Source: Candidatus Saccharimonadota bacterium | GTDB lineage: Bacteria > Patescibacteriota > Saccharimonadia > Saccharimonadales > Saccharimonadaceae | Assembly: GCA_000503915.1 (NCBI GenBank) | Contig: CP006915.1 | Coordinates: 1 to 32,000, forward strand | Length of the DNA stretch: 32,000 nucleotides | Reading direction: 5' to 3' | Shown here: positions 1 to 22,468 of the stretch, piece after piece | How positions within the stretch are numbered: position 1 is the stretch's first letter | Layout of the letters: every line of letters begins with the position of its first letter | Translations under genes and position numbers: made by a program | The notes under the pieces: model-generated | Told to the model about the DNA's origin: nothing | What the model saw: only the letters and a program-made list of their open reading frames with translations | Databases searched by the model: none

Positions 1-1149
1 TCACGGCAAGGTGTAAGTATAGGTACACGTCGTTCCGCTCAGCGTCCCTCCATCAGCGCAGTAGTAGTAGCCGCTTGATTGAGTGGCGGTATAGGTATTT
101 GTACACGTTGATCCGCTTAAACTACCGCCGCTAGGACAGTCATAGTATGACCCGCTGTACACTGCCGGGTGAGTACACGTGCTGCCACTCAGCGTGGCTC
201 CGGATTCATTACACCAATAGTATGTTCCTGTGGGCTGCCTATCATAGCAGTTATATGTGCCGTTCGTATTCAAGTAAGAATAGTTCGTTCCCGATGGACA
301 CTGTGAAGAAGTATTGGCGGTCCCCAGAGATTTCATACAGTAGTTGGTCCCTCCAATATTCTGGACGCTATAACTGGAACTCGGACAAACTTGCGCAGTA
401 CCGGGATATGTACAAGTTGCGCTACTTCCCGACCCGTTCATTGTCTCACCATAGTGACAATAATAATATGCCGCGTGGTAGGTGGCAGCGTAAGTATTTG
501 TACAAGTCGTACCACTCAATGTGCCACCACTCGGGCAGCTGTAAGTGCCGCTCTGGTAGGTAGCAGCGTAGGTTTTGGTACAGGTATTGCCGCTTTGGGT
601 TTCACCGGCGGCACAGGTGGCGGTACCGGCGACTGGCGTGAAGGTATCGTGCAGGCTTTTGGCGATGACGATACTGTTGTCGCTTTCTTTCTGGTATTGG
701 AGCTGGTAGCCATCACAGTAGCCAGTCAGGCTGGTCTGGCACTGGGTGTTTTTGGTACTGTTGGTGGTGTTGGCACTGTAGAGCAGCCGGGTGGGGCTAG
801 GACTACTGGTGACGATGGAGTTCTTGGTGGCGTCGTCCGCCAGGGGGAGTTTGAAGGTGCTGGCACTAACGACACCGAGCTTTTGTTTGAGGGTTGCCAC
901 GTCTTGGCTGGTCATAAGGGCAACCGAGGGGTATTCACCGTTTTTACGGTAGTACTTTTCTAGAGCGGTCGAGAGAATCTTGACGTTAGCGTCACGGGCA
1001 GTATCGCGGCTGCTCTTTTGGATTGATGCGGCTGAGAGAGAGACCAGGCCAGCCAGGAGGCCGATGACGATGACGACGATGGTGAGTTCGACAAGGGTGA
1101 AGGCGGGGAGGAAACGATTAATGCGTTGTTGTTTTAGTGTTTTTGCCAT
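1..1149 (-). CDS. Type IV pilin-like protein with C-terminal Cys-paired Ser/Thr/Gly/Tyr-rich repeats
   Basis: Complete 382-aa ORF (TGA at 1-3). The N-terminus MAKTLKQQRINRFLPA|FTLVELTIVVIVIGLLAGL has a short basic leader, Phe+1, Glu+5 and a hydrophobic helix, i.e. a prepilin (class III) signal, but with Ala rather than Gly at -1. The C-terminal half carries at least 6 copies of Y-x-C-x2-G-[GE]-[ST]-[LM]-[SN]-G-x-[ST]-C-T-x-[TP]-Y. Confidence 0.8.
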   Translation of the reverse strand: MAKTLKQQRINRFLPAFTLVELTIVVIVIGLLAGLVSLSAASIQKSSRDTARDANVKILSTALEKYYRKNGEYPSVALMTSQDVATLKQKLGVVSASTFKLPLADDATKNSIVTSSPSPTRLLYSANTTNSTKNTQCQTSLTGYCDGYQLQYQKESDNSIVIAKSLHDTFTPVAGTATCAAGETQSGNTCTKTYAATYQSGTYSCPSGGTLSGTTCTNTYAATYHAAYYYCHYGETMNGSGSSATCTYPGTAQVCPSSSYSVQNIGGTNYCMKSLGTANTSSQCPSGTNYSYLNTNGTYNCYDRQPTGTYYWCNESGATLSGSTCTHPAVYSGSYYDCPSGGSLSGSTCTNTYTATQSSGYYYCADGGTLSGTTCTYTYTLP

Positions 1150-3020: not shown

Positions 3021-3091
3021 AAAAATATCCCTCATCTATGAGGGTTCCTCAGTTACGAGTATACCATCTTGCCCTCAAGTAAGATAGTGTT

Positions 3092-3097
3092 TATAGT
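3092..3097 (+). promoter_or_regulatory. -10 box (TATAGT) 7 nt upstream of ATG 3105
   Basis: TATAGT-aataagc-ATG; there is no room for a Shine-Dalgarno sequence. Part of the window-wide leaderless pattern. Confidence 0.45.
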
Positions 3098-3104
3098 AAT
3101 AAGC

Positions 3105-3662
3105 ATGAACATGAACAATACACCCCCCTACAACAACTACCAAGTGTCCCCCACTGGTGAAGGAAAATCGAAAAAGAAACTTGTCATATTTATCACCCTC
3201 CTCGGCCTACTTTTGGTGGTGGCTGGAGCAGGGGCATATCTTGCAGTTGCCAGTGCTCAAGGGTGGTGGCCGTTTACTGTTGATAGTCCGGCCGAAACTA
3301 CCAAAACCGTAGAGCCACCTATTAAGATTAAAAAGGTGACGGTTTCCACCAAAGATGGCAAGCAGATGCTCGACATCGCCCTCAAGCTGAATTCAAAAGA
3401 CAAAGGCCACTGTGTGCTGGATCTTTCGAGCAAAATAGCTCGACTGACAATTGACGATTCAAAGGCAAACAAACAGCCAGAAGGATCTAAACCTGTCAAA
3501 CCTTGCTTCGGCTGGAACGTCGACGCAAGTGCGCTACCTAATGGCACCTATACGATCAACGTCAAGTTCGTTGGAGCAAAAAGCACTCTCACCACTTCGG
3601 ACAAGGTGACGCTCAAAGATGGTAAAACGCTGACCGAAGACAGCGATACAGATCACGAGTAG
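3105..3662 (+). CDS. Hypothetical membrane-anchored protein (N-terminal TM helix, small extracytoplasmic domain with 2 Cys)
   Basis: 185 aa from ATG 3105 (the track ORF starts at TTG 3069). TM segment LVIFITLLGLLLVVAGAGAYLAV is followed by a Lys/Thr-rich, apparently beta-rich domain. No family recognised. Confidence 0.6.
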   Translation: MNMNNTPPYNNYQVSPTGEGKSKKKLVIFITLLGLLLVVAGAGAYLAVASAQGWWPFTVDSPAETTKTVEPPIKIKKVTVSTKDGKQMLDIALKLNSKDKGHCVLDLSSKIARLTIDDSKANKQPEGSKPVKPCFGWNVDASALPNGTYTINVKFVGAKSTLTTSDKVTLKDGKTLTEDSDTDHE

Positions 3663-3673
3663 TACCTAGGTAC

Positions 3674-6406
3674 CTAGTAAAAAGTAAGCGAAGTTCCTAA
3701 AGATGACCCGCCACTACTACCTCCCACTGCTAAGTTTCCAAACTTTACAAGTGTAGGAACGTAGCGAGTTGCAGAGGTGCCATCGCCTAATTGGCCACTG
3801 TCGGTGTTCCTACCCCAGCAGTAGGCTTTGTCGTCGGAGCCGATCGCGCAGGTATGGTACCATGAGGGCGAAGCATAGATTGATTTAAATGTCATAGTCG
3901 TAGATACGGCTACTGGCGTACTACGATTGGTAACAGTACCGTCGCCTAATTGACCATATCCGTTATAGCCCCAGCAGTAGGCTTTGTCGTCGGAGCCGAT
4001 CGCGCAGGTATGCGTATACCCGGCACTGATTGACTTGAACGTAACTCCCGCAGGAATAGCACCTTGCGCGACAGCAGCTGGTATGCTGCTATTACCGCCG
4101 CCAGTTCCAAGGCGATAAAGAGTGCCATCGCCCCAGCAGTAGGCTTTGTCGTCGGAAGCTATTGCACACGTATGAATCTCCCCAGCGCTGATAGACTTTA
4201 TCGTCGCGCCTGCCGGCATAGCCCCCTGTACAATCGCCTGTGGTCTAGACAGATTGCTGGTTGTATTGTTTCCTAGTTGCCCTGAAGCATTATAGCCCCA
4301 GCAGTAGGCTTTGTCGTCGGAGCCGATCGCGCAGCTATAACGCTCACCGTTCGTGATCGCCTTGAAAGTTACGCCAGAAGGCATGTAAAAAGAATCGACA
4401 GCAACGGGTGTAGTACGCGAGGTTAGTGTGTTATCGCCTATTTGCCCAAACGCATTATTTCCCCAGCAGTAGGCGTTATTGTCGGATGCAATTGCACACA
4501 TATGAACACTGCTATTGCCGCTCACGATCGACTTGAGTGTAGCACCCGAAGGCATAGCGCCTTGAGCAATTGCCACCGGTGAACTGCGATCAGTTTGCGT
4601 CCCGTCAGCCAGTTGGTAATTACCATTATCTCCCCAACAATACCCCTTATCATCAGAGCCGATGACGCAGTTTTGGTAGTCGCCGCCACTGATAGATTTC
4701 ACAGTAACACTTGAAGGTATGGCTCCCTGCAAGACAGCAGCTGGCACATTATGAGCAGTGATTGTACCATCACCAAGCTGGTACTGGCTATTATCTCCCC
4801 AGCAATACGCTTTTCCGTCGGTACCAGCAAAACAGCTATGTTTTGTACCCAGTGCCATTGTCGTTGGCTTAGACGGCCAAGGTCCCTCGCCAGCCAACGT
4901 AGCAACCGGCGTACTGTTTATGCTAGTCGTAGTGCCATTGCCTAACTGTCCATTACCGCCAAGTCCCCAACAATACAGGCTACCGTTAGCAGCAGCACAC
5001 GTGTGGTTATAGCTGCTCGTCGCGTTATCGGTTGCGGACGAGACTTTCGTCACGGTCTTGCCGGCCAATGGACTTATGACCGCAGTTGGTGCGGTGAGTT
5101 GGTTAACTGTACCATCGCCGTTTTGTCCATGGATTCCGTAGCCCCAGCAGTACAAACTGCTGTTAGCAACGGCGCAGACGCCTCCGTTACGAGTAATGAC
5201 ATCAGTAACTGTCTTGCCGGCCAGTGCACCGCCTACCAGTACCGGCGTACTATTGGTAGCGGTGACAGTACCGTTGCCGATTTGTCCATTGCTGCCAAGT
5301 CCCCAACAATACAAACTACCGTCGGCGATGGCACAGGTATGGTTGTAGCCATTAGCTGGATCGCCATCACTCGATGACGATACCTTAGTCACGGTCTTGC
5401 CGGCCAATGGACTTATGACCGCAGTTGGTGCGGTGAGTTGGTTGGTTGTGCCATCACCATTCTGCCCATAAACTCCATAGCCCCAACAATACAAACTACC
5501 GTCGGCTATGGCACAGGTACCAACACTGCGAGTAATGACATCAGTAACTGTCTTGCCGGCCAATGCACCACCTACCAGTACCGGCGTACTATTGGTAGCG
5601 GTGACGGTACCGTTGCCGACTTGTCCGTTATTACCAATCCCCCAGCAGTACAGACTACCGTCGGCGATGGCACAGGTATGGTTGTAGCCATTAGCTGGAT
5701 CGCCATCACTCGATGACGATACCTTAGTAACTGTTTTACCGGCTAATGGACTAATGACCGCAGTTGGGGTAGTGAGTGAGTTGGTTGTACCGTTACCATT
5801 TTGTCCATAAACTCCGTAGCCCCAACAATACAGTCTACCCTCAGCGATGGCACAGGTACCAACACTGCGAGTAACCAGTGATTTGTCATTATTGTTAGTG
5901 GCTTGCGCTCCCCCTGGAACTGCTTTTAGTGTACTGTCGCTCCTTGAAAAGGTGTCCCCACTTGTGGTGCGTACCTGGTCAGTAATCCCTTTCGAATTGA
6001 GATTAGTCAGCTTACCACTGCTATTGGTATCGAAGGTAACTTCAAACTTCACACGGTAGTTGCCGTCCTTCATCACAAAGCAACGAGCATCAGTGCTGGT
6101 GTTCGTACAGGCTACGACTTCATTGCCGCTACAGTCGGTATTCGGCTTGAGTGGCTTGGCATTTGTCCATTGCGGCGTGTTACTGCTGGCTTGAAGGCAG
6201 GCATTCGCCATAATGAGCCCTGATTGGCTACCTTCTTTAGTGAGTTTTTCGGTATACTGATTTGTCAACGCGACATCGATGGAGCTGACGGTCGCAAAGG
6301 CTGCCAGCAGCGGGATAAAGAGCACGACGGCGGCGATCAGAACGGTCGGCAAAGCAAAAGCACGCGTATACCCCCCTGTAGTGATCCATTGCCTAAACTT
6401 AACCAT
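3674..6406 (-). CDS. RCC1-repeat (beta-propeller) surface protein with minor-pilin/PilX-like hydrophobic N-terminus
   Basis: 910-aa ORF. I counted 13 repeats containing [LAG]YCWG-x-[GN]-x2-GQ[LNIV]G[DN]G, the RCC1/ATS1 signature. N-terminus is MVKFRQWITTGGYTRA|FALPTVLIAAVVLFIPLLAAF. Confidence 0.85.
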   Translation of the reverse strand: MVKFRQWITTGGYTRAFALPTVLIAAVVLFIPLLAAFATVSSIDVALTNQYTEKLTKEGSQSGLIMANACLQASSNTPQWTNAKPLKPNTDCSGNEVVACTNTSTDARCFVMKDGNYRVKFEVTFDTNSSGKLTNLNSKGITDQVRTTSGDTFSRSDSTLKAVPGGAQATNNNDKSLVTRSVGTCAIAEGRLYCWGYGVYGQNGNGTTNSLTTPTAVISPLAGKTVTKVSSSSDGDPANGYNHTCAIADGSLYCWGIGNNGQVGNGTVTATNSTPVLVGGALAGKTVTDVITRSVGTCAIADGSLYCWGYGVYGQNGDGTTNQLTAPTAVISPLAGKTVTKVSSSSDGDPANGYNHTCAIADGSLYCWGLGSNGQIGNGTVTATNSTPVLVGGALAGKTVTDVITRNGGVCAVANSSLYCWGYGIHGQNGDGTVNQLTAPTAVISPLAGKTVTKVSSATDNATSSYNHTCAAANGSLYCWGLGGNGQLGNGTTTSINSTPVATLAGEGPWPSKPTTMALGTKHSCFAGTDGKAYCWGDNSQYQLGDGTITAHNVPAAVLQGAIPSSVTVKSISGGDYQNCVIGSDDKGYCWGDNGNYQLADGTQTDRSSPVAIAQGAMPSGATLKSIVSGNSSVHMCAIASDNNAYCWGNNAFGQIGDNTLTSRTTPVAVDSFYMPSGVTFKAITNGERYSCAIGSDDKAYCWGYNASGQLGNNTTSNLSRPQAIVQGAMPAGATIKSISAGEIHTCAIASDDKAYCWGDGTLYRLGTGGGNSSIPAAVAQGAIPAGVTFKSISAGYTHTCAIGSDDKAYCWGYNGYGQLGDGTVTNRSTPVAVSTTMTFKSIYASPSWYHTCAIGSDDKAYCWGRNTDSGQLGDGTSATRYVPTLVKFGNLAVGGSSGGSSLGTSLTFY
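3813..4335 (-). repeat. Four dispersed copies of a 38-45 nt string inside the RCC1 gene
   Basis: ccccagcagtaggctttgtcgtcggagccgatcgcgca starts at 3813, 3968 and 4296, with a diverged copy at 4131. It is in-frame coding for CAIGSDDKAYCWG in successive blades. Confidence 0.9.
4850..5866 (-). repeat. Three tandem 339-bp (113-aa, two-blade) intragenic repeats in the RCC1 gene
   Basis: Unit boundaries are 5866/5527/5188 (codons for SVGTC.. / SVGTC.. / NGGVC..). Units 1 and 2 align without gaps and are roughly nine-tenths identical at nucleotide level by eye. A 43-nt stretch (cggccaatggacttatgaccgcagttggtgcggtgagttggtt) is identical at 5062 and 5401. Confidence 0.9.
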
Positions 6407-6458
6407 ATGCTTGATGGTATTGTAGCGCGTTTTAAGAATAAGGAAAAGTCAGAATATG

Positions 6459-6486
6459 TGGTGGAGCATATATCAAGATATATGCT
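6459..6486 (-). repeat. Duplicate of the 13-nt 3' end of tRNA-Ala, embedded in a 9-bp hairpin
   Basis: tggtggagcatat occurs at 6459-6471 and again at 6531-6543, the tRNA 3' end including CCA. Hairpin is agcatatat-caag-atatatgct at 6465-6486. Confidence 0.85.
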
Positions 6487-6530
6487 ACCGGTGCTCATAA
6501 AACTAAATACGAGCATTCATTTTCTTCGCT

Positions 6531-6607
6531 TGGTGGAGCATATCGGATTCGAACCGATGACCTCTTCCATGCCATGGAAGCGCGCTAGCCAACTGTGCCA
6601 ATGCCCC
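6531..6607 (-). tRNA. tRNA-Ala (anticodon GGC), CCA encoded
   Basis: 77 nt: GGGGCAT..ATGCTCC-A-CCA. It has the G3:U70 wobble (the Ala identity element), anticodon arm CTTCC-ATGGCAT-GGAAG, and T-arm GGTTCGAATCC. Confidence 0.93.
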
Positions 6608-6795
6608 AAAGTTTACCCACACTATAGCAAATATTCGCCCCTATCGCTAGGGACGAATATTGTTCGCTGCTACGCGCCCACCCGGGGCACGGTGCTGTTT
6701 TCGGCTGTGTTTGTTTTAAGCAACAGGGCGTAGTCCCCGTTAGCGTACCAGCTGTAGTTTATTATCTCCTTCTCGGGCAAAAAACGCAAGCGCTT

Positions 6796-6804
6796 TGCTA
6801 TACT
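6796..6804 (+). promoter_or_regulatory. Extended -10 (TGcTATACT) 8 nt upstream of ATG 6813
   Basis: ttTGcTATACT-aaaactac-ATG. Confidence 0.5.
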
Positions 6805-6812
6805 AAAACTAC

Positions 6813-7079
6813 ATGAAGCAAACGAATAAAAAATCCATAGACGCACTCTACGAAACAGTAGGTTGGCTTGGTGCCGGCGGTGTACTCCTCGGCTATGCGC
6901 TGCTCAGTCTCGCTATCATGCCGGGTGATTCTATCTTGTATCACTCCCTGATGCTCTTTGGCTCGGCTGGGCTGGCTCTCATAACCTACAAACGACGATC
7001 CTATCAGCCTATGGTGGTGAACCTTGTTTTTTGCTTTTTCGCCATCGTAGCACTTATCCGACTTATAACGCTCGCATAA
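6813..7079 (+). CDS. Small integral membrane protein (3 predicted TM helices; resembles the CBU_0592-type small membrane protein family)
   Basis: 88 aa with three hydrophobic segments (WLGAGGVLLGYALLSLAI, LYHSLMLFGSAGLALI, VVNLVFCFFAIVALIRLI). The family resemblance is from memory only. Confidence 0.6.
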   Translation: MKQTNKKSIDALYETVGWLGAGGVLLGYALLSLAIMPGDSILYHSLMLFGSAGLALITYKRRSYQPMVVNLVFCFFAIVALIRLITLA

Positions 7080-7200
7080 AATCCCATTATGTGCTACTGT
7101 ATATAGGTTCAGAAGCATACGTGAATCTTTCTCTCCACCAGAGAATGTGAAGCTGCATGGTCGATCTGGCAACACATTAGTAACCAAGAGAAAGAAGCAT

Positions 7201-7509
7201 ATGCAAAAGCAAAATCTTTTCATCGGTAGCCTCGCCTACTCTACGACTGACGACAGCCTCAAAGCGTTTTTTGAGACAGTTGGCCCAGTCGCTAGCGCAC
7301 GCGTTATCACCGACCGCGACTCAGGTCGTTCAAAGGGCTTTGGTTTCGTCGAATTCGAAAACGACAGCGACAACCAAAAAGCCGTTGACGAACTGAATGG
7401 TAAAGAGCTTGACGGTCGCGAGATCAATGTCAGCCTTGCCAAGCCAAAAGAAGACCGTCCTCGACGCGATTCAAACGGCGGCGGTTCATTCCGTCAGCGC
7501 AGCTGGTAA
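7201..7509 (+). CDS. RRM-type RNA-binding protein (glycine/arginine tail)
   Basis: 102 aa from ATG 7201. RNP-2 is LFIGSL and RNP-1 is KGFGFVEF, with a C-terminal RRDSNGGGSFRQRSW tail. The upstream in-frame extension from 7147 has no homology logic. Confidence 0.88.
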   Translation: MQKQNLFIGSLAYSTTDDSLKAFFETVGPVASARVITDRDSGRSKGFGFVEFENDSDNQKAVDELNGKELDGREINVSLAKPKEDRPRRDSNGGGSFRQRSW

Positions 7510-7529
7510 TCCAGCCTAGCAATAAAATG

Positions 7530-7558
7530 ACCTCTCAAAACGAGAGGTTATTTTATTT
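7530..7558. terminator. Bidirectional rho-independent terminator between the RRM gene and the PGPGW gene
   Basis: acctctc-aaaac-gagaggt followed by tattttattt and preceded by aataaaat. It overlaps the stop codon of the minus-strand gene (7553-7555). Confidence 0.75.
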
Positions 7559-7924
7559 AACGAATGGTGACTTCAGCCAATCAAAGCCAAGATTAAAGAG
7601 TTCGTTAATGAGCCCATAAGTGTTGAGCAGCCATAGGGTAAGAACGACGATAAGTGCCGTGCCAAGCAGCGTCAAGACACGAATTGACCAGTGCTGTCCA
7701 CGGATCCAATCGTTCCAGCGGTCATACTGCTCTCTTGCATAAACGTTCAACCGATGCGCCCAAGTAAATTCCTGCGCCAGAATCGTTAGTCCGGCAAAAA
7801 CGATCAGCCAGCCCGGCCCGGGATATGGAATGGCGACCACGCCTGCCAGCAGCACGATACCGCCCGCCACGCCGATGATTATTCGACGCGTGCGTGAGCT
7901 TTTTTCTGTCTCGTTATTTTTCAT
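7553..7924 (-). CDS. PGPGW-motif small membrane protein (PF09656-like)
   Basis: 123 aa from ATG 7924. Motif IPYPGPGWLIVFAGLTILAQEF, with 3-4 TM segments. The start overlaps the upstream stop by 11 nt (ATGAAAAATAA). Confidence 0.7.
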   Translation of the reverse strand: MKNNETEKSSRTRRIIIGVAGGIVLLAGVVAIPYPGPGWLIVFAGLTILAQEFTWAHRLNVYAREQYDRWNDWIRGQHWSIRVLTLLGTALIVVLTLWLLNTYGLINELFNLGFDWLKSPFVK

Positions 7925-8477
7925 CGATTTTCTCCATAAAGAACTCGCGGATAACGGCAAGCGGCCTCGCTTCAAGATAGCTTTTCCCGTCGTCCTCCTT
8001 GTTCAGCTCTGCGCGCGTTTTGCCACCGTAGCCATCGACACACCATATCGCATCGTAGCCGTAACCACCCGTCCCGCGCGGACTAGTAGCAATTTCACCG
8101 CTAGCTCCGCCTTCAAAATGTGTGAACGTCTCACCGTCAAAGTATGTCGTCATGACGACCGTATGTGCTCGTCTATTCGAAAATCCATCCAGCATACGGC
8201 AAAGCTTCTCAAGTCCTTCTCTCTCTTCAACAAAAAATTTGATAAATGGACCTGGTAAATTGCCGAGAGCATTAAAGAACAACCCGACATCCTCCACTAA
8301 AATCGGCCGCCGTAAGATGTCATATGCACGACGAGCTTTATCCTCGGTGATTTTTCGTAAATCGGTCGACTGGATCTCACCAAGATCCAGTTTGTGATGG
8401 TCAAATTCAATACCAATGAGTTTAGAGAAATAAGTAGTTTTATTCGGATTGCCGGTGACGAATACGGGTTTTACCAT
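7914..8477 (-). CDS. rdgB: Non-canonical purine NTP pyrophosphatase (RdgB/HAM1/ITPase family)
   Basis: 187 aa from ATG 8477. N-terminal VFVTGNPNK motif, then ..LVEDVGLFFNALGNLPGPFIKFF.. and GYGYD. The track ORF start at 8591 adds 38 residues with no homology. Confidence 0.8.
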   Translation of the reverse strand: MVKPVFVTGNPNKTTYFSKLIGIEFDHHKLDLGEIQSTDLRKITEDKARRAYDILRRPILVEDVGLFFNALGNLPGPFIKFFVEEREGLEKLCRMLDGFSNRRAHTVVMTTYFDGETFTHFEGGASGEIATSPRGTGGYGYDAIWCVDGYGGKTRAELNKEDDGKSYLEARPLAVIREFFMEKIDEK

Positions 8478-8484
8478 GTTGTTT

Positions 8485-8493
8485 AGTATAACA
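8485..8493 (-). promoter_or_regulatory. Extended -10 (TGtTATACT) 7 nt upstream of ATG 8477
   Basis: Minus strand reads TGTTATACT-aaacaac-ATG. Confidence 0.5.
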
Positions 8494-8507
8494 CTAGGAA
8501 ACGAGCG

Positions 8508-8529
8508 AAAAGCGAGCCGGTTCGCTTTT
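8508..8529. promoter_or_regulatory. 8-bp perfect inverted repeat centred between two divergent promoters
   Basis: AAAAGCGA-gccggt-TCGCTTTT. It lies between the -10 boxes at 8485-8490 (-) and 8571-8576 (+). Candidate operator. Confidence 0.35.
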
Positions 8530-8567
8530 GTACAACAACGACGTGTTATATCAATACGGCCGAGTAT

Positions 8568-8576
8568 TGATATACT
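8568..8576 (+). promoter_or_regulatory. Extended -10 (TGaTATACT) 7 nt upstream of ATG 8584
   Basis: atTGaTATACT-tgatatc-ATG. Confidence 0.5.
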
Positions 8577-8583
8577 TGATATC

Positions 8584-9174
8584 ATGTCCAATTATCCATC
8601 GATAGACCGGCTCGCCGAGCTGCAGCAGCTCATCGCCGATTTTGCCAAAGTCGAGCGCGTACCGCACCTCGCCGACAATGGCCGACCGGAAAACGACGTC
8701 GAGCACAGCTTCGGTCTCGCGCTTACTTGTTGGTATTTGCAACCAAAAATCGCCCCAGAGCTCGACTTACTCAAAATCCTCCAGTACGCTCTTGCCCACG
8801 ACATCGTTGAGCTTCACGCCGGCGATACTTATGTCTTTGATCTGGAAAAAGCTGCGTCAAAAGAAGAGCGTGAACGTGCAGCACTCGAGCAAATCTCCAA
8901 AGACTGGCACGACTTTCCTGAGTTAGTTGAGCATGCGAAAGACTACATGGATAAAGCAAACGAGGAGGCAAAGTTCGTCAAAGCCGTTGACAAGCTTCTA
9001 CCTGTTATCATGATTGATATCGGCCAAAAGCAAGTTTGGTGGCATAAATATAATGTCACACTTGAAATGGAACGCGAACATAAGAAAAGCATCCGAGTTT
9101 CCGACTATGTTTCACCGTATTATGAACAGCTTATCGAATGGCTCGACAAGAACGGCAATATTCCAAAATCGTAA
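8584..9174 (+). CDS. HD-domain phosphohydrolase (YfbR-like 5'-deoxynucleotidase family)
   Basis: 196 aa from ATG 8584. Motifs are ENDVEHSFGLAL (His...) and LAHDIVELHAGD (HD...D). Confidence 0.75.
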   Translation: MSNYPSIDRLAELQQLIADFAKVERVPHLADNGRPENDVEHSFGLALTCWYLQPKIAPELDLLKILQYALAHDIVELHAGDTYVFDLEKAASKEERERAALEQISKDWHDFPELVEHAKDYMDKANEEAKFVKAVDKLLPVIMIDIGQKQVWWHKYNVTLEMEREHKKSIRVSDYVSPYYEQLIEWLDKNGNIPKS

Positions 9175-9175
9175 G

Positions 9176-9919
9176 TTATTTCGTCCGGCGGCGCAGTGTC
9201 AGCGAGCCCAGCACAACTGTACCGACTACAAAAGCGAAGACCATCCAGACGTCCCGCCAGGCTTCGTTGGATAAATCAGCCTCGACTGCGACACGGTTGA
9301 GCGCATCGACGGCATATGTCAGCGGTAACCAGTAGGCGATTTTCTCCAGTAGATCCGGCATCTGACTAAGCGGTAATAGCAAGCCACAAACGAGGAACTG
9401 TGGGAAGATGAGTGCCGGCATAAATTGTACAGCCTGGAATTCGGTACGAGCAAAAGCGCTGACAAATAGTCCAAGCGTTACTCCCATCACAGCATCGGCT
9501 AGTGCTACCAAAACTACGAACCATTCTGGCCCGGCCACGTCCATACCAAGCAGCCAAATTGCTACCGCACTGGCGACGAGCGACTGCGCAATTGCCAGCA
9601 CGCCGAAGGCAATCGTATAGCCGACGATAATATCGAGCTTTGCAACGGGGGTTACCAGCACCCGCTCCAGTGTGCCACTCGTGCGCTCGCGCAGTGTGGT
9701 GATACTCGTTACTAAAAACATGATGGTGAATGGAAATAATCCAAGCAAGGCCGGCGCGATATGGTCAAAAACGGTCGGATTATCGCTAAATAGCCAGTAC
9801 AGTAGGCTCATCAGAACCACTGGTACAAGAAATATTAAGGCCACCGAGCGATGATCATGTGACAGCTGCCGCAAGATGCGATAGGCGGTAGCGAGGATAG
9901 CTTTTAAATGGTAGAACAT
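9176..9919 (-). CDS. ABC-2 type transporter permease
   Basis: 247 aa with 6 hydrophobic segments, the typical ABC-2 layout. Its start overlaps the ATPase stop by 1 nt (TAATG). Confidence 0.8.
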   Translation of the reverse strand: MFYHLKAILATAYRILRQLSHDHRSVALIFLVPVVLMSLLYWLFSDNPTVFDHIAPALLGLFPFTIMFLVTSITTLRERTSGTLERVLVTPVAKLDIIVGYTIAFGVLAIAQSLVASAVAIWLLGMDVAGPEWFVVLVALADAVMGVTLGLFVSAFARTEFQAVQFMPALIFPQFLVCGLLLPLSQMPDLLEKIAYWLPLTYAVDALNRVAVEADLSNEAWRDVWMVFAFVVGTVVLGSLTLRRRTK

Positions 9920-10626
9920 TAAGCAGCCTCCACCAGTTTCAAAAATGCCGCCTCAGTCGAGCGTGTTTTGGTGTGTCGTAATAGCTCTTCACGCGCCTCA
10001 GTCCACAGCAGCTTGCCGTCTCGCACCAGAATAACGTCATCGCAGCGATCAGCCTCATCCATAACATGACTCGAGATCAATATCGTCTTACCGCTATGCG
10101 CAAACCTACGAAACAGTTGCCACAGGCTATGGCGCAAGACCGGATCAAGTCCGACTGTCGGCTCATCAAGCACCAAAATATCGGGTTCGCCAAGCAGGGC
10201 TATCGCTAAGCTAACCCGCGCACGTTGACCGCCCGATAATGTCGCCGCGACTTGATTACGTTGCCCAGTGAGATCCACATGCTTGATGACTGTATCAATC
10301 GCCGCACGAGACGCATTGATAAGTGACGCGAAATAAGCAAGATTCTGGTACACGGTCAGGTCTTCGTATACCGATGAACTCTGGGGTACATAACCTATGC
10401 GTCCACGTAGCTCAGAGCTTCCTGCCGCTAGATCGTCAATGGCCAGACTGCCGGAAGTTGGGATCTGTATGCCGACAATCGCGCGCATCATCGTGGTTTT
10501 GCCGGCACCACTCGGACCGATTAAACCAACTAACCTGCCTGGTTTAACATTAAAATTAATCGCTTTTAAGATCTTATTGCCATTTTTTTCAACGACTAGC
10601 TTCCGTCCGACAATGCCACTGTTCAT
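9919..10626 (-). CDS. ABC transporter ATP-binding protein (partner of the ABC-2 permease)
   Basis: 235 aa from ATG 10626. Walker A GPSGAGKTT, signature LSGGQRARV, Walker B ILVLDEPT, and an H-loop SSH. Confidence 0.9.
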   Translation of the reverse strand: MNSGIVGRKLVVEKNGNKILKAINFNVKPGRLVGLIGPSGAGKTTMMRAIVGIQIPTSGSLAIDDLAAGSSELRGRIGYVPQSSSVYEDLTVYQNLAYFASLINASRAAIDTVIKHVDLTGQRNQVAATLSGGQRARVSLAIALLGEPDILVLDEPTVGLDPVLRHSLWQLFRRFAHSGKTILISSHVMDEADRCDDVILVRDGKLLWTEAREELLRHTKTRSTEAAFLKLVEAA

Positions 10627-10630
10627 AGGA

Positions 10631-10879
10631 TTATTGTACACCCGCCTCAACCACGTATTCAAAGCGTGGCCTCGTTTCTCCATTCAGCTCAACGGCTTGG
10701 GTAAACATATCGTATGGGCGAACAAACAATTCATATTTCGTATCGTAGAGCGGCCGATACACCACCAGCTGCTCCGATGTTTCACTGTGCAGCGCAACGC
10801 CGATCACTTCATAGAGGTTTCCCGTTTTACTATGACGATAGGTTCCTTTTTGAATAACTTTCGGCTCAGCGTCACTCAT
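10631..10879 (-). CDS. DUF1653 domain protein
   Basis: 82 aa. The stretch GTYRHSKTGNLYEVIGVALHSETSEQLVVYRPLY....FVRPYDMF matches the DUF1653 pattern as I remember it. Confidence 0.7.
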   Translation of the reverse strand: MSDAEPKVIQKGTYRHSKTGNLYEVIGVALHSETSEQLVVYRPLYDTKYELFVRPYDMFTQAVELNGETRPRFEYVVEAGVQ

Positions 10880-11286
10880 ACATCTTCCTCGTCACTTAAC
10901 TCAGGGTACTTGTTCGGTTCACCACGATAGTAATTTATCCATTCATCACCCTGCTCAAGCATAATTTTCTCAACAAATATCCCGCTCGAGAAGCCGCCTT
11001 TTTCCTCCAGCTTTTCGAGGCGGCGACTCTCGATTTCTTCCTCTGAGATACCGGCAATCGCCGCAAAGTCGAGCGCAATCTGTCGTTTATCGGCCAGCTC
11101 ATCGGTCATTTTTACCCTATCACCAATAGCTGCGCGTAGTTCCCCCGTCTCCTCATCGTCTTTATCGAGCAGTGCTCCAAGCAACGCTATCTCACTAAGC
11201 TGACGCGACATAATACGTTGATGCAGCGAACCATACATTTCTGGAAGTTTGTCGCGGATTAGTTTGTTGAACTGGAATATCGGCAT
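10876..11286 (-). CDS. MazG-like / all-alpha NTP pyrophosphohydrolase family protein
   Basis: 136 aa from ATG 11286. N-terminal FNKLIRDKLPE, acidic metal motifs EETGE and DELAD, and C-terminal EKGGF. ATGA overlap with the downstream gene. Confidence 0.62.
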   Translation of the reverse strand: MPIFQFNKLIRDKLPEMYGSLHQRIMSRQLSEIALLGALLDKDDEETGELRAAIGDRVKMTDELADKRQIALDFAAIAGISEEEIESRRLEKLEEKGGFSSGIFVEKIMLEQGDEWINYYRGEPNKYPELSDEEDV

Positions 11287-11287
11287 A

Positions 11288-11614
11288 CTACAGATCCTCT
11301 TCATCGAATAGCGGATAGATATCAAACGCGACTTCTTCGTAAGGGTGAGTTTCTTTCATAGCAGCAATCACATTCTTTGCATCTTCACGCTCACAGACGA
11401 CTTCGATACGCTCTTCTTCGACCACCTCCGACTTGCCGGGCTCGCCAATGTGCGGACTTGCGTTCGCACCTGGCACAAACCTTCCCTTGCCAACCACGGA
11501 GTAACTACAGAAGCTATATTCACCGATCTTACCGGCACCCGCCACGCCTAATGCGCGGCGCACCTTGTCGGCACTCTCTATTGGCACGAAAGTGACAACC
11601 TTAACTCTACTCAT
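11288..11614 (-). CDS. Stand-alone NIF3/YqfO insert-domain-like (PII-like fold) protein
   Basis: 108 aa. VKVVTFVPIESADKVRRAL..AGAGKIGEYSFCSY...GRF.P..GA.P.IGE.G....VEE.RIEVVC......VIAAMKETHPYEEVAFDIYPL resembles the domain inserted in YqfO/NIF3 proteins. Confidence 0.65.
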   Translation of the reverse strand: MSRVKVVTFVPIESADKVRRALGVAGAGKIGEYSFCSYSVVGKGRFVPGANASPHIGEPGKSEVVEEERIEVVCEREDAKNVIAAMKETHPYEEVAFDIYPLFDEEDL

Positions 11615-13623
11615 AGTAGTTCCACCAGTTCTTTTTCATTAATAATCTTCGTTCCGTAGCTCTCAGCATTTTTCAATTTCGATGCTCCTACTTTGCCACC
11701 AGCGACGAGGTAGGTCGTGTCTTTGGCCACCGAGCTCTGGAAAGTACCGCCAAGCGCACGAATTTTTTCAGCGGCCTCATCGCGGCTCATTGATTCTAGC
11801 GTACCGGTAATGACAAAACTTTTGCCTTCCAGTTTGCCCGTTTTCTTTTCAAACTGCGGCTTAACACCGAGCTTTTTAAACTTGTCGAGCAGAGCGAGGT
11901 TGTCTTCGTCTGCAAACCAGGCGGCGATGCTTTCAGCTACCACGTCACCAACGCCATCGACATTTCTCAGCTCATCGATAGTCGCATGTGCCAGCTTATC
12001 AAGATTGCCAAACGTATTCACCAAGTCAATCGCTGTCTGAATGCCAACGTGACGGATACCGAGCCCGTAGACGAAACGCTCCAGCGGCGGCTGCTTTTTA
12101 TCAGCAATCCCATCGATCAGCTTCAGGGCAGAAATCTCGGCAAAGCGTTCGAGTTTCAGTAAGTCATCTTTCTGTAATTCATAAATATCAGCTAAATCGT
12201 GCACTAAACCAGCATCAACCAACGCTTCAACATTTTTTTCGCCGAGCGTGTCAATATCGAGTGCACCTTTAGACGCAAAATGCTGCAAGGCACGCTTTAA
12301 AAGCAGCGGACCAGTTGCACCTTTCACACGGTAGACCGCTTCACCTTCCGGCCTTTCAAACTCGAGCTCCGGATACTGGCGCTTTAGTTCCGCTGGATAA
12401 TCAAACGGCTTGGTGCCTTTTGGTCGAAGCTCCGAAAGTACTCGCTCGACCTGCGGTATGATATCGCCCGCCTTGAAAATAATCACCGTGTCACCAACGC
12501 GTATATCTTTCCGAGCAATTTCATCGGCGTTGTGAAGACTGGCGTGCTGCACCGTCGTGCCGGCGACATTGACTGGCTGAAACACCGCCACCGGCGTGGC
12601 GGCACCGGTCCGGCCAATCGAAATAACGATGTCTTCGACAACAGTCGTCGTTTCTTCAGCCGGGTACTTATAGGCAATCGCGCCACGCGGACTCTTGCCG
12701 ACAACACCGAGTTCGTTGAACTGGGCACGGTTATTGATCTTGACGACGAGGCCATCGGTATTGAAGCGAAAGCCCAGCCGCTTGTCATCCAGTTCATCGA
12801 CATAGCCCATGATCTCATCGACACTCGTCATGACGCGTGTCTGCCCACTGGTTGTAATCCCAAGCTCAGCCATCATGGCATATCCGACCGCGTTTGTCGG
12901 CACATCATCCGGCTCATCGCGCAAAATATCATAGCCGACGAAATGCAGCGGCCGCTCGGCTACCAGTCGTGGATCGAGTTGACGAATCGTCCCGGCCGCC
13001 AGATTGCGAGGGTTTTTAAACAGCGGCTGCCCGGCTTTCTCACGTTTCTCGTTGAGGCGAGCGAAATCGTCTTTATACATGACGATTTCACCGCGAATCT
13101 CTGTGCGGCCGCGTAAGAGATGAGCGTATCTTTGATTGCCACGAAGCCGCAAAGGAACATTTTCAATCGTGCGCACATTCATAGTTACGTCCTCACCCAC
13201 ACGACTATCACCACGCGTCACTGCCTGGACGAGCACGCCGTCTTCATAAATCACGGCACATGCCAGTCCATCCATCTTGATATCACAGATGAACTCGTGC
13301 TTTGCGCCGGGCAGGAGCTTATCCATCCGTTTTATCCATGCTTCGATTTCTTCGCGATTAAAGACATCGTTCAACGATATCATCGGCACACGATGTGTCA
13401 CCTTTTGAAATTTATCGAGTGCGATACCGGCGACACGCTGCGTCGGGCTGTCGGATGTAACCAACTCCGGGTGCGCCTCCTCAAGCTGTGATAGCTCGTG
13501 CTTCAAACTATCGGCGGCCGCTTCACTCATGGTCGATTCGTTGAGTACATGGTAATGGTAGCGGTAGTCATTGATCAGTTTTTTTAGCTGATTAATCCGT
13601 TCTTTAGGCTGGTTTTGCGTCAT
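11611..13623 (-). CDS. ligA: NAD-dependent DNA ligase
   Basis: 670 aa from ATG 13623. Adenylation motif CDIKMDGLA, OB fold, HhH repeats, and a C-terminal BRCT (GKSFVITGTL...). The chosen start gives the usual approximately 10-residue lead before the RINQLKKLINDYRYHYH helix. It overlaps the upstream gene by 20 nt. Confidence 0.93.
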   Translation of the reverse strand: MTQNQPKERINQLKKLINDYRYHYHVLNESTMSEAAADSLKHELSQLEEAHPELVTSDSPTQRVAGIALDKFQKVTHRVPMISLNDVFNREEIEAWIKRMDKLLPGAKHEFICDIKMDGLACAVIYEDGVLVQAVTRGDSRVGEDVTMNVRTIENVPLRLRGNQRYAHLLRGRTEIRGEIVMYKDDFARLNEKREKAGQPLFKNPRNLAAGTIRQLDPRLVAERPLHFVGYDILRDEPDDVPTNAVGYAMMAELGITTSGQTRVMTSVDEIMGYVDELDDKRLGFRFNTDGLVVKINNRAQFNELGVVGKSPRGAIAYKYPAEETTTVVEDIVISIGRTGAATPVAVFQPVNVAGTTVQHASLHNADEIARKDIRVGDTVIIFKAGDIIPQVERVLSELRPKGTKPFDYPAELKRQYPELEFERPEGEAVYRVKGATGPLLLKRALQHFASKGALDIDTLGEKNVEALVDAGLVHDLADIYELQKDDLLKLERFAEISALKLIDGIADKKQPPLERFVYGLGIRHVGIQTAIDLVNTFGNLDKLAHATIDELRNVDGVGDVVAESIAAWFADEDNLALLDKFKKLGVKPQFEKKTGKLEGKSFVITGTLESMSRDEAAEKIRALGGTFQSSVAKDTTYLVAGGKVGASKLKNAESYGTKIINEKELVELL

Positions 13624-14698
13624 CGTCAACAACCTTTCGATACAATAGATAGACATAGCTAGCACTCCAGACCGTTGCTATCGATGTGACGACCAGAATA
13701 GCCAGCGGCACGATCGGAACATTATCCAGCCACGAAGCCATCGACACCAGCCAATGGTTGAGCAGGATAATCGGCAGCATGATGACGATCCAGCCGATGC
13801 CAACCAGTAATGCTAGCCACACAAAACGCAGTAAAATGCGAAGACGACGCCCCACCACGAGGTCACCTGCCGCACGTACCGCTTGCATCGGATACATACC
13901 AGGAAGCGTTACGATAATCAGCGCCAAGATCGTACCCGAAATCCAATAGAGCGATAGCACGGTAAGTAGCCCAACCACCAGCCAGAAAATCATGCCAATA
14001 ATACCGTTCGATAAGAAGTCTGTGGCGAAGGCCACGCTGACACCGAGCGCCGCCAAGGCAAAGGGGGCGAGCTGGAAAAACAGCAGTACGAGCACTAAAA
14101 ATGTCGGCACGATCGGCGAACCGCTATTATAAATACCTTCTCTTAGCCTCGGCGTATGGCCGCTCAAGATAGCCCGGATCAGCCATACCGTTGTCAGCCA
14201 CGTCACTAGCACGATTAACACACTGTAGACTTGCTGGGCATCGGTGAGCTGCGGCGCGAAACTACCGCCAATCGCAGAGATTAGCAGCAGGCTCGCCTTG
14301 CCTATCTCCCCCCATGCGCCCGTCAAAATATCGGCGCCGGTCTGCTGAAGCAGGTCGCTCATCTCGGCGTAGGTTGATTGCAATGAGATGCCGACGAAGA
14401 CACCAGAAATCACGGCATAAAATAGTACCAATAGGCCAAATAGTTTTTTGTAACGCCAGAGCAGCCGCCAAACCTCGATAGTAAATGCAAAATAGCCCGG
14501 CAACGCGAATGAGCGGACATAATCTCGCCGACGAGTTCGCCGAAAACTACGGTGTGGCCGACGCACCAGGAAAGTGCCGATACGACGGTGTAGCTTCTCG
14601 TAAGGGCGCAGGAAAACCTTGTACCAGCGCTGCGAGCGGCTTAGCTTCTTCTTGACGACAGGCCTTTTCTTTGTGGAGGCAGCGCTACGGTCCGACAT
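13604..14698 (-). CDS. Hypothetical polytopic membrane protein with strongly basic N-terminal region
   Basis: 364 aa. The first approximately 65 residues are Lys/Arg-rich (KKRPVVKKKLSRSQR...RRTRRRDYVR), followed by about 7 hydrophobic segments. No family recognised. Confidence 0.6.
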   Translation of the reverse strand: MSDRSAASTKKRPVVKKKLSRSQRWYKVFLRPYEKLHRRIGTFLVRRPHRSFRRTRRRDYVRSFALPGYFAFTIEVWRLLWRYKKLFGLLVLFYAVISGVFVGISLQSTYAEMSDLLQQTGADILTGAWGEIGKASLLLISAIGGSFAPQLTDAQQVYSVLIVLVTWLTTVWLIRAILSGHTPRLREGIYNSGSPIVPTFLVLVLLFFQLAPFALAALGVSVAFATDFLSNGIIGMIFWLVVGLLTVLSLYWISGTILALIIVTLPGMYPMQAVRAAGDLVVGRRLRILLRFVWLALLVGIGWIVIMLPIILLNHWLVSMASWLDNVPIVPLAILVVTSIATVWSASYVYLLYRKVVDDDAKPA

Positions 14699-14702
14699 AG
14701 CG

Positions 14703-15578
14703 CTAGAACTTACCGGTCATTTCCCGGAGACGTTTTACACGGTCTTCAATCGGCGGATGTGTACTAAATAGTTTTGCGAGACTCGCACCCTTCAGTGGGT
14801 TCGCAAAAAACAGATGTGCCGATGAACTGTTTTGTCGCTTCAGTCCCGACCCAACCTGGCCGATCTTTTCAAGTGCCGTCGCTAGCGCCTCTGGATCCCG
14901 TGTCGTCATGGCACCAGTAGCATCGGCTAGATATTCACGTTGCCGGGAGATCGCAAACTGGACAAGCATAGCAATGATCGGCGCTACAATAGCAGCCACG
15001 ATGCCAATCACCAGAAATATTGGCGACGAATTACGATCACGACTGTCGCTAAACCACAACATGCGAAGGAAGATATCAGCCAGTAGCCCGATTGCACTGA
15101 CAAGTCCAAAAACAATCATCATGACACGAATGTCAAAATTCTTGACGTGTCCCATCTCGTGCGCCATGACCGCTTCAAGTTCCCGGTCGCTCATCAGCTC
15201 GACGATACCAGTCGTAGCCGCAACATAAGCATGCTTCGGATCACGTCCGGTTGCAAAAGCGTTCGGAGCCGGATCATCGATCAGATAGACCTTTGGCATC
15301 GGCATGCCATTGGTGATCGACAGGTTTTCAACGATACGATACAGCTTTGGGTTATCACGCTTTGCTATCTCATGAGCTCCGTTGACAGCCAGCGCTAGTT
15401 TCGCTGCCGCAAAGTACTGAATGAGCGCATACACGCTGGCACCAACCAATGTACCCCAGAAAATTCCCGTACTGCCGTAGACCTGAGAAAATACATACCC
15501 CAGGCCAGTGACAATCACGATGAAGACCAGCATGATAAACACCGTATTTCGTTTGTTAGCAGCAATAGCGTTATACAT
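14703..15578 (-). CDS. htpX: Zinc metalloprotease HtpX (M48 family)
   Basis: 291 aa with HEMGHVKN zinc motif, 4 TM segments, and a C-terminal STHPPIEDR. Confidence 0.92.
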   Translation of the reverse strand: MYNAIAANKRNTVFIMLVFIVIVTGLGYVFSQVYGSTGIFWGTLVGASVYALIQYFAAAKLALAVNGAHEIAKRDNPKLYRIVENLSITNGMPMPKVYLIDDPAPNAFATGRDPKHAYVAATTGIVELMSDRELEAVMAHEMGHVKNFDIRVMMIVFGLVSAIGLLADIFLRMLWFSDSRDRNSSPIFLVIGIVAAIVAPIIAMLVQFAISRQREYLADATGAMTTRDPEALATALEKIGQVGSGLKRQNSSSAHLFFANPLKGASLAKLFSTHPPIEDRVKRLREMTGKF

Positions 15579-15611
15579 AAGGCCCGCGAATACCCTCTAC
15601 AAAAATAATGG

Positions 15612-16407: not shown

Positions 16408-16413
16408 ATGTTC

Positions 16414-21490: not shown

Positions 21491-22468
21491 CTATTGCGGA
21501 CCCGCATTGTATACAGCTTGAACCTCAGCGTCCGATAGCGCTCTACTATAGAGACGAACATCGTCGATTTTCCCATTAAAATAATAAGAGCTGGCGAACC
21601 GTCCGATGTCTATCGTGCCAGTTCCATTACCGATTGCCGTACTTCCTGTATCGGAATCACACTTTATCCCGTCGATGTAGAGGGCTGTATTTGCGCCGTC
21701 CTGCAGCCCGACAATATGGTGCCAGTTATTCGCTGAAGGAATAGTACATACCGTATTGTTATTGTACGGAGCGCCGCCTCGCCAATACATTAAGGTTCCA
21801 GAAAAGAATATTTCCCACATTTGGTTAACTGGATTTTTTCCGATCACAAAACCAAGCTGAGAAAAGTTAGCACTGTATACCCACGCCGATGTCGTGATAG
21901 TAGTTGCAATACTTATCGTCGGAACCTGTATATAGGTATTGCTGCCGTTGAAGGCATACGCCTGGTTTGTGCTGCCGTTCTTGTCAGTAGTGGGTGATGC
22001 ATTTACCACGAGTCCGTCGTGTCCACCACCGCTGGTATCATTACCGTTGCCATTGAGCGGCCACCAGCCGACCAGCCCTTGCGTTGGGCAACTGCCAGCT
22101 TGCGGTGACTGATTGATACCATCGAGATAATATGTCACGTCCGCAACTTTTGTACTGCCACCTTGCAGGCAAAACGAACTGCCGTCGCTACTGCCGCCAC
22201 CAGCAATCGCCACACTGTCGCCACTCTTAAAACTTGACGGCACGGCGAACGGATAGCCGCTGCCAAAGTTTTTTGCTTGCTCCAGCGCTGCAGCGGCTGA
22301 CTTTAGGTCGGCCTGTACCGAGCTTTGCGCTAGTCGTGTCTGCCAGGATCCATAACCTACAACGGTAATACCTGCTAATATAGCCACGACAGCAACCACG
22401 ATCATAAGTTCGACAATCGTAAACGCAACGTTGAAATATCTATTTTTACGTGCCCACTTCATGTTCAT
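21491..22468 (-). CDS. Type IV pilin-like protein fused to a LamG/concanavalin-A-like lectin domain
   Basis: 325 aa. N-terminus is MNMKWARKNRYFNVA|FTIVELMIVVAVVAILAGI (prepilin-type, Ala at -1). The C-terminal approximately 200 aa carry LVGWWPLNGNGNDTSGGGHDG...AYAFNGSNTYIQVP...WHHIV...LYIDG...GKIDDVRLYSRALSDAEVQAVY, the LamG_3 pattern. Confidence 0.85.
   Translation of the reverse strand: MNMKWARKNRYFNVAFTIVELMIVVAVVAILAGITVVGYGSWQTRLAQSSVQADLKSAAAALEQAKNFGSGYPFAVPSSFKSGDSVAIAGGGSSDGSSFCLQGGSTKVADVTYYLDGINQSPQAGSCPTQGLVGWWPLNGNGNDTSGGGHDGLVVNASPTTDKNGSTNQAYAFNGSNTYIQVPTISIATTITTSAWVYSANFSQLGFVIGKNPVNQMWEIFFSGTLMYWRGGAPYNNNTVCTIPSANNWHHIVGLQDGANTALYIDGIKCDSDTGSTAIGNGTGTIDIGRFASSYYFNGKIDDVRLYSRALSDAEVQAVYNAGPQ

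Follow-up and report, generated by a model that had tools for sequence, protein, structure and literature searches.

Saccharibacteria live attached to bacterial hosts, and the means by which these hosts are recognized are largely unknown. One candidate adhesin has been studied genetically, PilX2 (TM7x_02980) of Nanosynbacter lyticus TM7x, a putative minor pilin described by Grossman et al. (ISME J 2025, PMC12206443; preprint PMC11623550). Here, we analyze a gene for a protein of the same build, found in a 32,000-nucleotide stretch of DNA from a second member of the same phylum, Candidatus Saccharimonadota bacterium (positions 1 to 32,000 of contig CP006915.1, GenBank assembly GCA_000503915.1; hereafter, the window). 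The gene encodes a protein of 910 amino acids (aa), in which a pilin-like N-terminal module is followed by 13 RCC1 repeats. We propose that this protein, which lacks the glutamate at position +5 (Glu5), is probably a modular minor pilin with an adhesin head.

PilX2 has a lollipop N-terminus, a hepta-bladed RCC1 β-propeller and a “non-canonical signal peptide”, and has neither a TXSScan nor a BLAST match (PMC12206443). Its gene lies between pilA2 and pilW2-pilV2-pilZ2 (PMC12206443). When pilX2 is deleted, host binding falls from 10.6% to 4.6% and the ability to compete with another Saccharibacterium is lost, and PilX2 is proposed by the authors to be the adhesin of the thin type IV pilus 2 (T4P-2) (PMC12206443). 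SignalP called no PilD signal for either PilX1 (TM7x_00475) or PilX2 of TM7x (PMC11623550). By the measure used in the preprint, the Gly+Ala+Ser+Thr (GAST) content is 36–39% in TM7x pilins and 25–28% in cytoplasmic PilB proteins (PMC11623550). The initial annotation of the window, which was made from the sequence without database searches, knew of no characterized RCC1 propeller on a pilin-type anchor. With PilX2 and its host-binding phenotype published, that statement is out of date. The window protein resembles PilX2 in its lollipop N-terminus, its non-canonical signal peptide, its RCC1 propeller head and its high GAST content (45%), a likeness in described features. However, PilX2 has one seven-bladed propeller and is encoded in a pilin operon beside pilA2, whereas the window protein, the product of an orphan gene, has 13 blades (6 + 7).

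PilX of type IVa pili (T4aP), GspK of the type II secretion system, and ComGG of the Com pilus each have a short leader with a terminal Gly and, behind it, a hydrophobic helix that lacks Glu5. A class III signal lacking Glu5 is the hallmark of tip subunits of this type. The genes of all three lie with those for two or three further minor pilins, and GspK, which has an extra domain, caps its filament. The window protein is like them in having a prepilin-like junction without Glu5. It is unlike them in that it has no detectable sequence or hidden Markov model (HMM) similarity to these proteins (the PilX family PF14341 is unmatched) and in that its gene lies outside any minor-pilin operon. Furthermore, the extra domain of GspK is inserted into the pilin sheet, whereas the head of the window protein is appended C-terminally. 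GspK is also discussed by Raynaud et al. (PNAS 2021, PMC8179133) in their work on the modular pilins of S. sanguinis. There, PilB carries a von Willebrand factor A head and PilC a concanavalin A (ConA)-like lectin head, each behind a canonical class III signal peptide with Glu5 (IPR012902). The architecture of a small pilin-type module, a short linker and a grafted, probably tip-exposed adhesion module is common to these pilins and the window protein, as is the diversity of heads, including ConA-like lectins. In contrast to PilB and PilC, the module of the window protein (designated here by its conserved junction, G/A↓FALPT, where the arrow marks the putative cleavage site) escapes the IPR012902 signature, and would be missed by a census based on it because the signature does not detect it. 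The PilY1/PilC tip adhesins of T4aP are also β-propeller adhesins, presented at the pilus tip by minor pilins. PilY1 differs from the window protein in lacking a pilin-like helix at its N-terminus and in having a propeller of another type than RCC1, and it is not a pilin.

The N-terminus of the window protein carries a prepilin-like junction that is conserved throughout a large family. In the window protein, the junction reads MVKFRQWITTGGYTRA↓FALPTVLIAAVVLFIPLLAAF (...YTRA↓FALPTVLIA), with Thr in place of Glu at +5. The initial annotation had recognized both the lack of Glu5 and the same Ala-Phe junction in the two other pilin-like proteins of the window, and the sequences bear this out (...RFLPA↓FTLVE in the 382-aa pilin and ...YFNVA↓FTIVE in the 325-aa pilin). 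Because these two canonical prepilins also have Ala at −1, a prepilin peptidase that accepts Ala↓Phe would be expected in the source genome.

To define the family, we built a profile from residues 1–190 and searched it against 1.84 billion cluster representatives. At least 830 clusters at 50% identity carry this N-terminal module (N-module), 356 of them with E ≤ 1e-30. The module spans ~150–160 aa and is always N-terminal in the 830 matches, whose total lengths range from 128 to 1861 aa. We show that the junction is strictly conserved among 158 family representatives. The leader is short (median 12 aa), position −1 is Gly (125/158) or Ala (33/158) and nothing else, and Phe occupies +1 in 158/158. 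A+2, L+3 and P+4 are nearly invariant, and +5 is mostly Thr (137/158) or Ser (11/158) and never Glu. Other conserved features are the Cys pair C70/C92, W80, and a KPLKPNTDC motif, which is KPLKPNTDCSGN in the window protein. As read from these sequences, the junction is that of a class III (prepilin) signal without Glu5, the hallmark of PilX, GspK and ComGG. Conservation of exactly these positions would not be expected for a generic membrane anchor or a Sec signal. One relative (P0006) has been named “Tfp pilus assembly protein PilX” by JGI.

All three pilin-type proteins of the window have Ala rather than Gly at −1, a residue found there in only 33 of the 158 family representatives. Gly and Ala are mixed within one locus in other Saccharibacteria; thus, there is no strict per-genome rule. 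A Tad-type reading of the junction (G↓xxxxEF) was rejected, as it would require a conserved upstream Gly and a Glu, both of which are lacking.

The predicted fold of the N-module is a helix plus a small sheet. An AlphaFold model of residues 1–190, computed with the family alignment (predicted local distance difference test, pLDDT, 76.6), has a continuous helix from about residue 19/20 to residue 73 and a four-stranded antiparallel sheet at residues 112–162. The full-length AlphaFold model (pLDDT 81) reproduces both. Between the helix and the repeats lies a Cys-containing segment (C70, C92, C100 and C109), as had been noticed from the sequence. This modeled “lollipop” is a topological resemblance to pilins, not a demonstration of homology.

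The remainder of the protein is an RCC1 head. In agreement with the initial annotation, the gene is an intact open reading frame (ORF) with 13 RCC1 repeats: Pfam RCC1 (PF00415) matches in 13 stretches (E 1e-91), RCC1_2 (PF13540) in 12, and WD40_RLD (PF25390) with E 1e-149. There are 13 CWG motifs, spaced 52–60 aa apart, each with a second conserved Cys before it. The full-length model contains 52 strands, which form 13 four-stranded blades, and a dip in confidence at residues 507–509 splits them into 6 + 7. The repeats had been judged sufficient for two seven-bladed propellers, but 13 blades are one short of that number, and most relatives have 14. The best PDB matches of the whole model in Foldseek are seven-bladed RCC1-like domains (RLDs), over 355–395 aligned columns that are not assigned to either blade set. 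They include UVR8 (E 2e-32), RLD2 of HERC2 (target TM-score 0.81, root-mean-square deviation 2.4 Å) and RPGR. By both these matches and the Pfam E values, the head is strongly similar to UVR8, the HERC2 RLD, RPGR and RCC1. These are eukaryotic, intracellular proteins with one seven-bladed ring, whereas the window head has 13 blades with a conserved Cys pair each and is putatively extracellular. The repeat number (13 versus mostly 14 in relatives), together with the 339-bp tandem repeat in the DNA, suggests a recent, repeat-mediated gain or loss of blades. Possibly, the count of 13 is an assembly artifact in a metagenome-assembled genome (MAG).

The last residue is aromatic (Tyr, rarely Phe) in most of the relatives that we read (P0001–P0017 and L028), whether the head is RCC1 or Collar, and also in one head-less member. 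Such ends include ...LTFY (window, 3674–3685), ...FYTY, ...AIKY, ...PVIY and ...RRYF. In the head-less L062 member, the last residue is Gln. The recurrent aromatic residue suggests that the C-terminus may contact a feature shared by most members, possibly the stalk module.

The window gene is one orphan paralog of a large Saccharibacteria family that combines one stalk with interchangeable binding heads. The relatives retrieved with residues 1–190 include N-modules fused to other heads, such as the phage tail Collar domain and a Gly-rich region. Among 75 family members scanned for heads, we found Gly_rich_2 (32), RCC1 (13), Collar (8), ConA-like Laminin_G_3 (8), PA14 (4), fibrinogen_C (3), fn3 (3), ricin B (2) and NHL (1). 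Judged by their domain families, most of these heads are binding modules.

Some members of the family have genuine prepilins as gene neighbors. Scanning GTDB species genomes, we obtained 80 loci (cited here by L number), nearly all from Saccharibacteria. We show that members adjoin genuine prepilins in five of them: L019, L024, L043, L051 and L062. In the first four, the member is clustered with two conserved prepilins. The first of these has the junction G↓F[TS]A[VI]ELL and a length of 143–170 aa, apart from the L043 copy, which has 758 aa and contains immunoglobulin (Ig) and ConA-like domains. The copies in L019, L024 and L043 match TIGR02532 above the cut-off, and that of L019 also matches PilV (E 4e-5). 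The second prepilin (~285 aa, G↓FTL[IV]E) has weak GspH, GspJ and HpsC matches. The members in L019, L024 and L051 have as their head an RCC1 propeller into which a ricin B lectin is inserted. They resemble PilX2 in their position beside two minor pilins, and the layout of these loci agrees with the TM7x gene order pilX2-pilW2-pilV2. L024 holds a second member (12284–14539), directly upstream of the two minor prepilins, which appears to be divided between an N-module ORF of 126 aa and an RCC1 + ricin B ORF of 530 aa (a frameshift or a pseudogene).

Canonical pilins, too, can carry the RCC1 double head seen in the window protein. We compared the 115 closest full-length RCC1 relatives. At least 28 of them carry the G/A↓FALPT stalk (lengths 880–990 aa, mostly 14 repeats), and 11–12 combine 13–14 repeats with a canonical G↓FT[LI][IV]E N-terminus and a precomputed PF07963 match. 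Two of these canonical-pilin fusions bear the JGI label “RCC1 family protein / Tfp pilus assembly pilin”. At L086 (7200–12739), two tandem genes encode canonical GFxxE prepilins (910 and 912 aa), each fused to 13–14 RCC1 repeats. The L086 contig carries a further RCC1 gene beyond a Dus/UvrD block; in L011 and L034, this block lies between a G↓FALPT member and a plain pilin. The cultivated strain TM7i has a 1330-aa member with 21 repeats (KI440_02565), which adjoins the ATP synthase operon.

The family-wide junction, the predicted lollipop fold, the prepilin-adjacent members, and the presence of the same RCC1 double head on canonical GFTxxE pilins all point in one direction. On balance, they make it probable that the window protein is a modular, Glu5-less minor pilin of a Saccharibacteria type IV pilus, functionally equivalent to the tip subunits PilX, GspK and ComGG, and fitted with an adhesin head. 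A PilX-type anchor without Glu5 and with an RCC1 adhesin head was also the proposal of the initial annotation. It stands as the best-supported reading, given the junction, fold, neighbors and canonical fusions, but it does so with no match to a pilin HMM or a solved pilin, and with a gene that is an orphan.

Several observations weigh against this reading. The protein itself lacks Glu5, having Thr21 at +5. The HMM searches that the initial annotation had suggested recovered the RCC1 families, but not the pilin families: PF07963 and PF14341, and beyond the suggested models also TIGR02532 and TadE/Tad, gave no match at E ≤ 1 on the full protein, and none at E ≤ 10 on eight family N-termini, where only spurious transmembrane matches were obtained. 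This is weak negative evidence, because models of the N_methyl/IV_pilin type hinge on the GFxxxE motif. The undoubted pilins of the window themselves score 13–16 bits, just below the TIGR02532 cut-off of 16.3. A sequence profile of the N-module had 0 matches in the PDB at E ≤ 10. The structure prediction, which had also been proposed, yielded the helix-and-sheet lollipop and the 13 blades, but Foldseek matched the residue 1–190 model to no solved pilin in the PDB (best E 0.3). An hhalign comparison of the family profile with genuine Saccharibacteria pilins placed G−1 and F+1 in register, but the alignment is weak (35 columns, E 0.003, probability 11%) and is not taken here as a sign of homology. 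In the head, blades 1–6 are one short of a canonical seven-bladed ring. As for gene context, most members are orphans among housekeeping genes. This includes the window gene, which lies between tRNA-Ala and a convergent gene for a 197-aa protein, followed by bipA, and not in a minor-pilin operon. A canonical pilin lies within 3 kb in only 7/79 loci (window included), a ~2.8-fold enrichment in density that rests on small numbers. PilX2 itself is a putative component of its filament and, by architecture and gene order, a candidate member of the G/A↓FALPT family.

Many of these points would also suit the main rival reading, an adhesin that is tethered to the membrane and independent of the pilus. 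The N-terminus would then act as a signal-anchor that stays uncut, as in a type II membrane protein, and the RCC1 head would sit at the cell surface on a helical stalk, with FALPT serving membrane insertion or oligomerization rather than prepilin processing. The spurious transmembrane-type matches in place of pilin-HMM matches, the lack of Glu5, the orphan position of most family members, the missing SignalP call of a PilD signal for TM7x PilX1 and PilX2, and the absence of pilins from the Foldseek results are all consistent with such a protein. Nevertheless, we consider it unlikely. It leaves unexplained why −1 is exclusively Gly or Ala, why Phe+1 is invariant and why a short basic leader precedes it in 158/158 representatives. 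Also left unexplained are the 55-residue helix with its four-stranded sheet, the clustering with two prepilins in four genomes, and the same RCC1 double head on canonical GFTxxE pilins.

Far less probable is a secreted or wall-associated RCC1 lectin exported via Sec, in which signal peptidase I would cut near AFA↓TV (after residue 38) and release a soluble propeller. There is an A-x-A-like site (A36-F37-A38) after the hydrophobic stretch, and many bacterial RCC1 proteins found in our search have ordinary signal peptides. However, the hydrophobic stretch of ~21 residues continues as one predicted helix to residue 73, and the A-x-A is not conserved in relatives, whereas the start of the stretch is invariant. 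With a cut at this site, the family would lose its most conserved part. An origin as a receptor-binding (tail-fiber-like) protein of a phage or mobile element scarcely deserves credence and was discarded. In its favor, phage tail Collar and Gp10_C domains occur in relatives that share the N-module, NCBI calls one such relative “tail fiber protein”, and the gene adjoins a tRNA gene. Against it, the housekeeping flanks of the gene are syntenic with another Saccharibacteria genome (L062), its GC content is unremarkable within a flat composition, there are no phage genes nearby in the window, and the N-module is nearly confined to Saccharibacteria in the GTDB scan. Three Collar-headed relatives have only housekeeping genes around them.

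If the window protein is a Glu5-less minor pilin, its assembly can be outlined, with cleavage, pilus incorporation, tip location and ligand being the parts that we infer. The hydrophobic α1-N segment would insert into the membrane, and cleavage by the prepilin peptidase after Ala16 would strip off a basic leader of 16 residues, leaving Phe1 at the N-terminus. Because Thr takes the place of Glu5, the protein could occupy only the topmost position in the filament. It would prime assembly jointly with PilV-like and PilW-like minor pilins and end up at the pilus tip. The predicted 55-residue helix and small β-sheet would act as the stalk, from which a flexible linker would present the 13 RCC1 blades (6 + 7, predicted) as two RCC1 propellers. 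These blades would bind to a ligand, probably a glycan, on the surface of the host bacterium.

Table 1. Coordinates of the RCC1 gene, its parts, and related features in the window. Residue numbers refer to the 910-aa protein.
Feature	Coordinates	Strand	Remarks
Canonical type IV pilin, 382 aa, ...LPA↓FTLVELTIVV	1..1149	(-)	GspG TIGR01710 E 2e-10, below its cut-off
Pilin-like + RCC1 gene	3674..6406	(-)	Complete ATG-to-stop ORF, 910 aa: N-module + 13 RCC1 blades
Disordered Gly/Ser tail ...LTFY, residues 887–910 + stop codon	3674..3748	(-)	Full-length model
RCC1 blades 7–13, residues 514–886	3749..4867	(-)	High-confidence part of the model
RCC1 blades 1–6, residues 177–513	4868..5878	(-)	Three near-identical two-blade units
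DNA tandem repeat, 339-bp unit, 2.5 copies, 86% matches	5037..5874	(.)	Underlies blades 1–6
Low-confidence linker from stalk to head, residues 166–176	5879..5911	(-)	pLDDT <50 at residues 166–174
Globular part of N-module, residues 74–165	5912..6187	(-)	W80, KPLKPNTDCSGN motif, four antiparallel strands (112–162); invariant pair C70/C92
One continuous predicted helix, residues 19–73	6188..6352	(-)	55 residues = pilin α1 length; AlphaFold models
Hydrophobic α1-N-like segment, residues 17–37, FALPTVLIAAVVLFIPLLAAF	6296..6358	(-)	F17, A18, L19, P20 invariant in family; Thr21 at +5
Short basic leader ending in Ala, residues 1–16 (MVKFRQWITTGGYTRA)	6359..6406	(-)	Putative prepilin-peptidase leader, cleavage inferred
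tRNA-Ala(GGC)	6531..6607	(-)	125 nt upstream of RCC1 gene
Canonical modular pilin, 325 aa, ...NVA↓FTIVELMIVV, ConA-like lectin head	21491..22468	(-)	PilA_Myxo E 5e-8; Laminin_G_3 E 3.5e-23

The nearest pilin gene to the RCC1 gene is that of the 382-aa pilin, at a distance of 2,525 bp, with bipA in between. The initial annotation had placed a major-pilin-like gene 2.5 kb away. The distance is right, but at 382 aa and rich in repeats this neighbor is too large to be an obvious major pilin, and the label cannot be given with confidence. The C-terminal two-thirds of this protein consist of Cys/Thr/Tyr-rich repeats of the type CPSGGTLSGTTCTNTYAATY, which have no family match. The 325-aa pilin has the build of a PilC-type modular pilin of S. 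sanguinis, with its ConA-like head at the C-terminus; its gene adjoins uvrC and lies outside any pilus operon. A gap of 12 nt lies between the end of the convergent gene for the 197-aa protein (3069–3662, plus strand) and the RCC1 gene with its stop codon. The 197-aa protein has one N-terminal transmembrane helix, and its Ig-like/E-set matches are weak and sub-threshold. A scan for promoters and terminators around the RCC1 gene gave nothing above shuffled expectation. A deposited fragment 100% identical to the 910-aa protein is a hypothetical protein of a Candidatus Saccharibacteria MAG (P0003).

Part of the window is syntenic with locus L062 of a Saccharibacteria MAG (PBTC01000044). Window positions 6407–16175 correspond to L062 positions 3348–10453, which share LemA, HtpX, a membrane protein, LigA, a small membrane protein, and an RNA recognition motif (RRM) protein. 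The window has ~3.7 kb of extra genes (7914–11614) after ligA. In place of the tRNA-Ala and the RCC1 gene of the window, L062 has a canonical pilin and, 46 nt downstream, a head-less 163-aa family member. Elsewhere in the window, a 150-aa Cys-rich ORF between tRNA genes (16408–16860, plus strand) looks HNH-like by eye, and a 204-aa ORF (30778–31392, minus strand) resembles, also by eye, an IS200/REP-type Y1 transposase.

The family may have a wider meaning, which we put forward as possible but doubtful. The G/A↓FALPTVLIAS module could be a large, Saccharibacteria-specific class of Glu5-less tip pilins that current signatures do not see, with one copy in a minor-pilin operon and several orphan paralogs per genome, each bearing a head of its own. 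Its heads would be swapped as a repertoire of tip adhesins. With the same reservation, that repertoire would comprise single, double and triple RCC1 propellers, ricin B, ConA-like, PA14, fibrinogen-like, phage tail collar and Gly-rich heads.

An RCC1-bearing, PilX2-like pilin with a role in host binding is already a known kind of protein. What may be new is the 13-blade double head with its three recently duplicated two-blade units. The family picture may also be new, namely a conserved, signature-invisible stalk with many alternative heads, mostly at orphan loci, although this picture relies on inference. If the pilin reading is false, the window protein is simply a membrane-anchored surface lectin. 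If it is true, the protein is another candidate adhesin for host recognition, and the conserved G/A↓FALPT stalk would offer a simple sequence handle for cataloging such adhesins across Saccharibacteria. Adhesins of this type are all missed by standard pilin HMMs, by SignalP, and by the modular-pilin census based on IPR012902. Should the repertoire reading also hold, a single pilus machine would be equipped to deal with varied host surfaces. The window protein and its recently duplicated two-blade units would then form one fast-evolving cassette of the repertoire. Such a repertoire could set host range.

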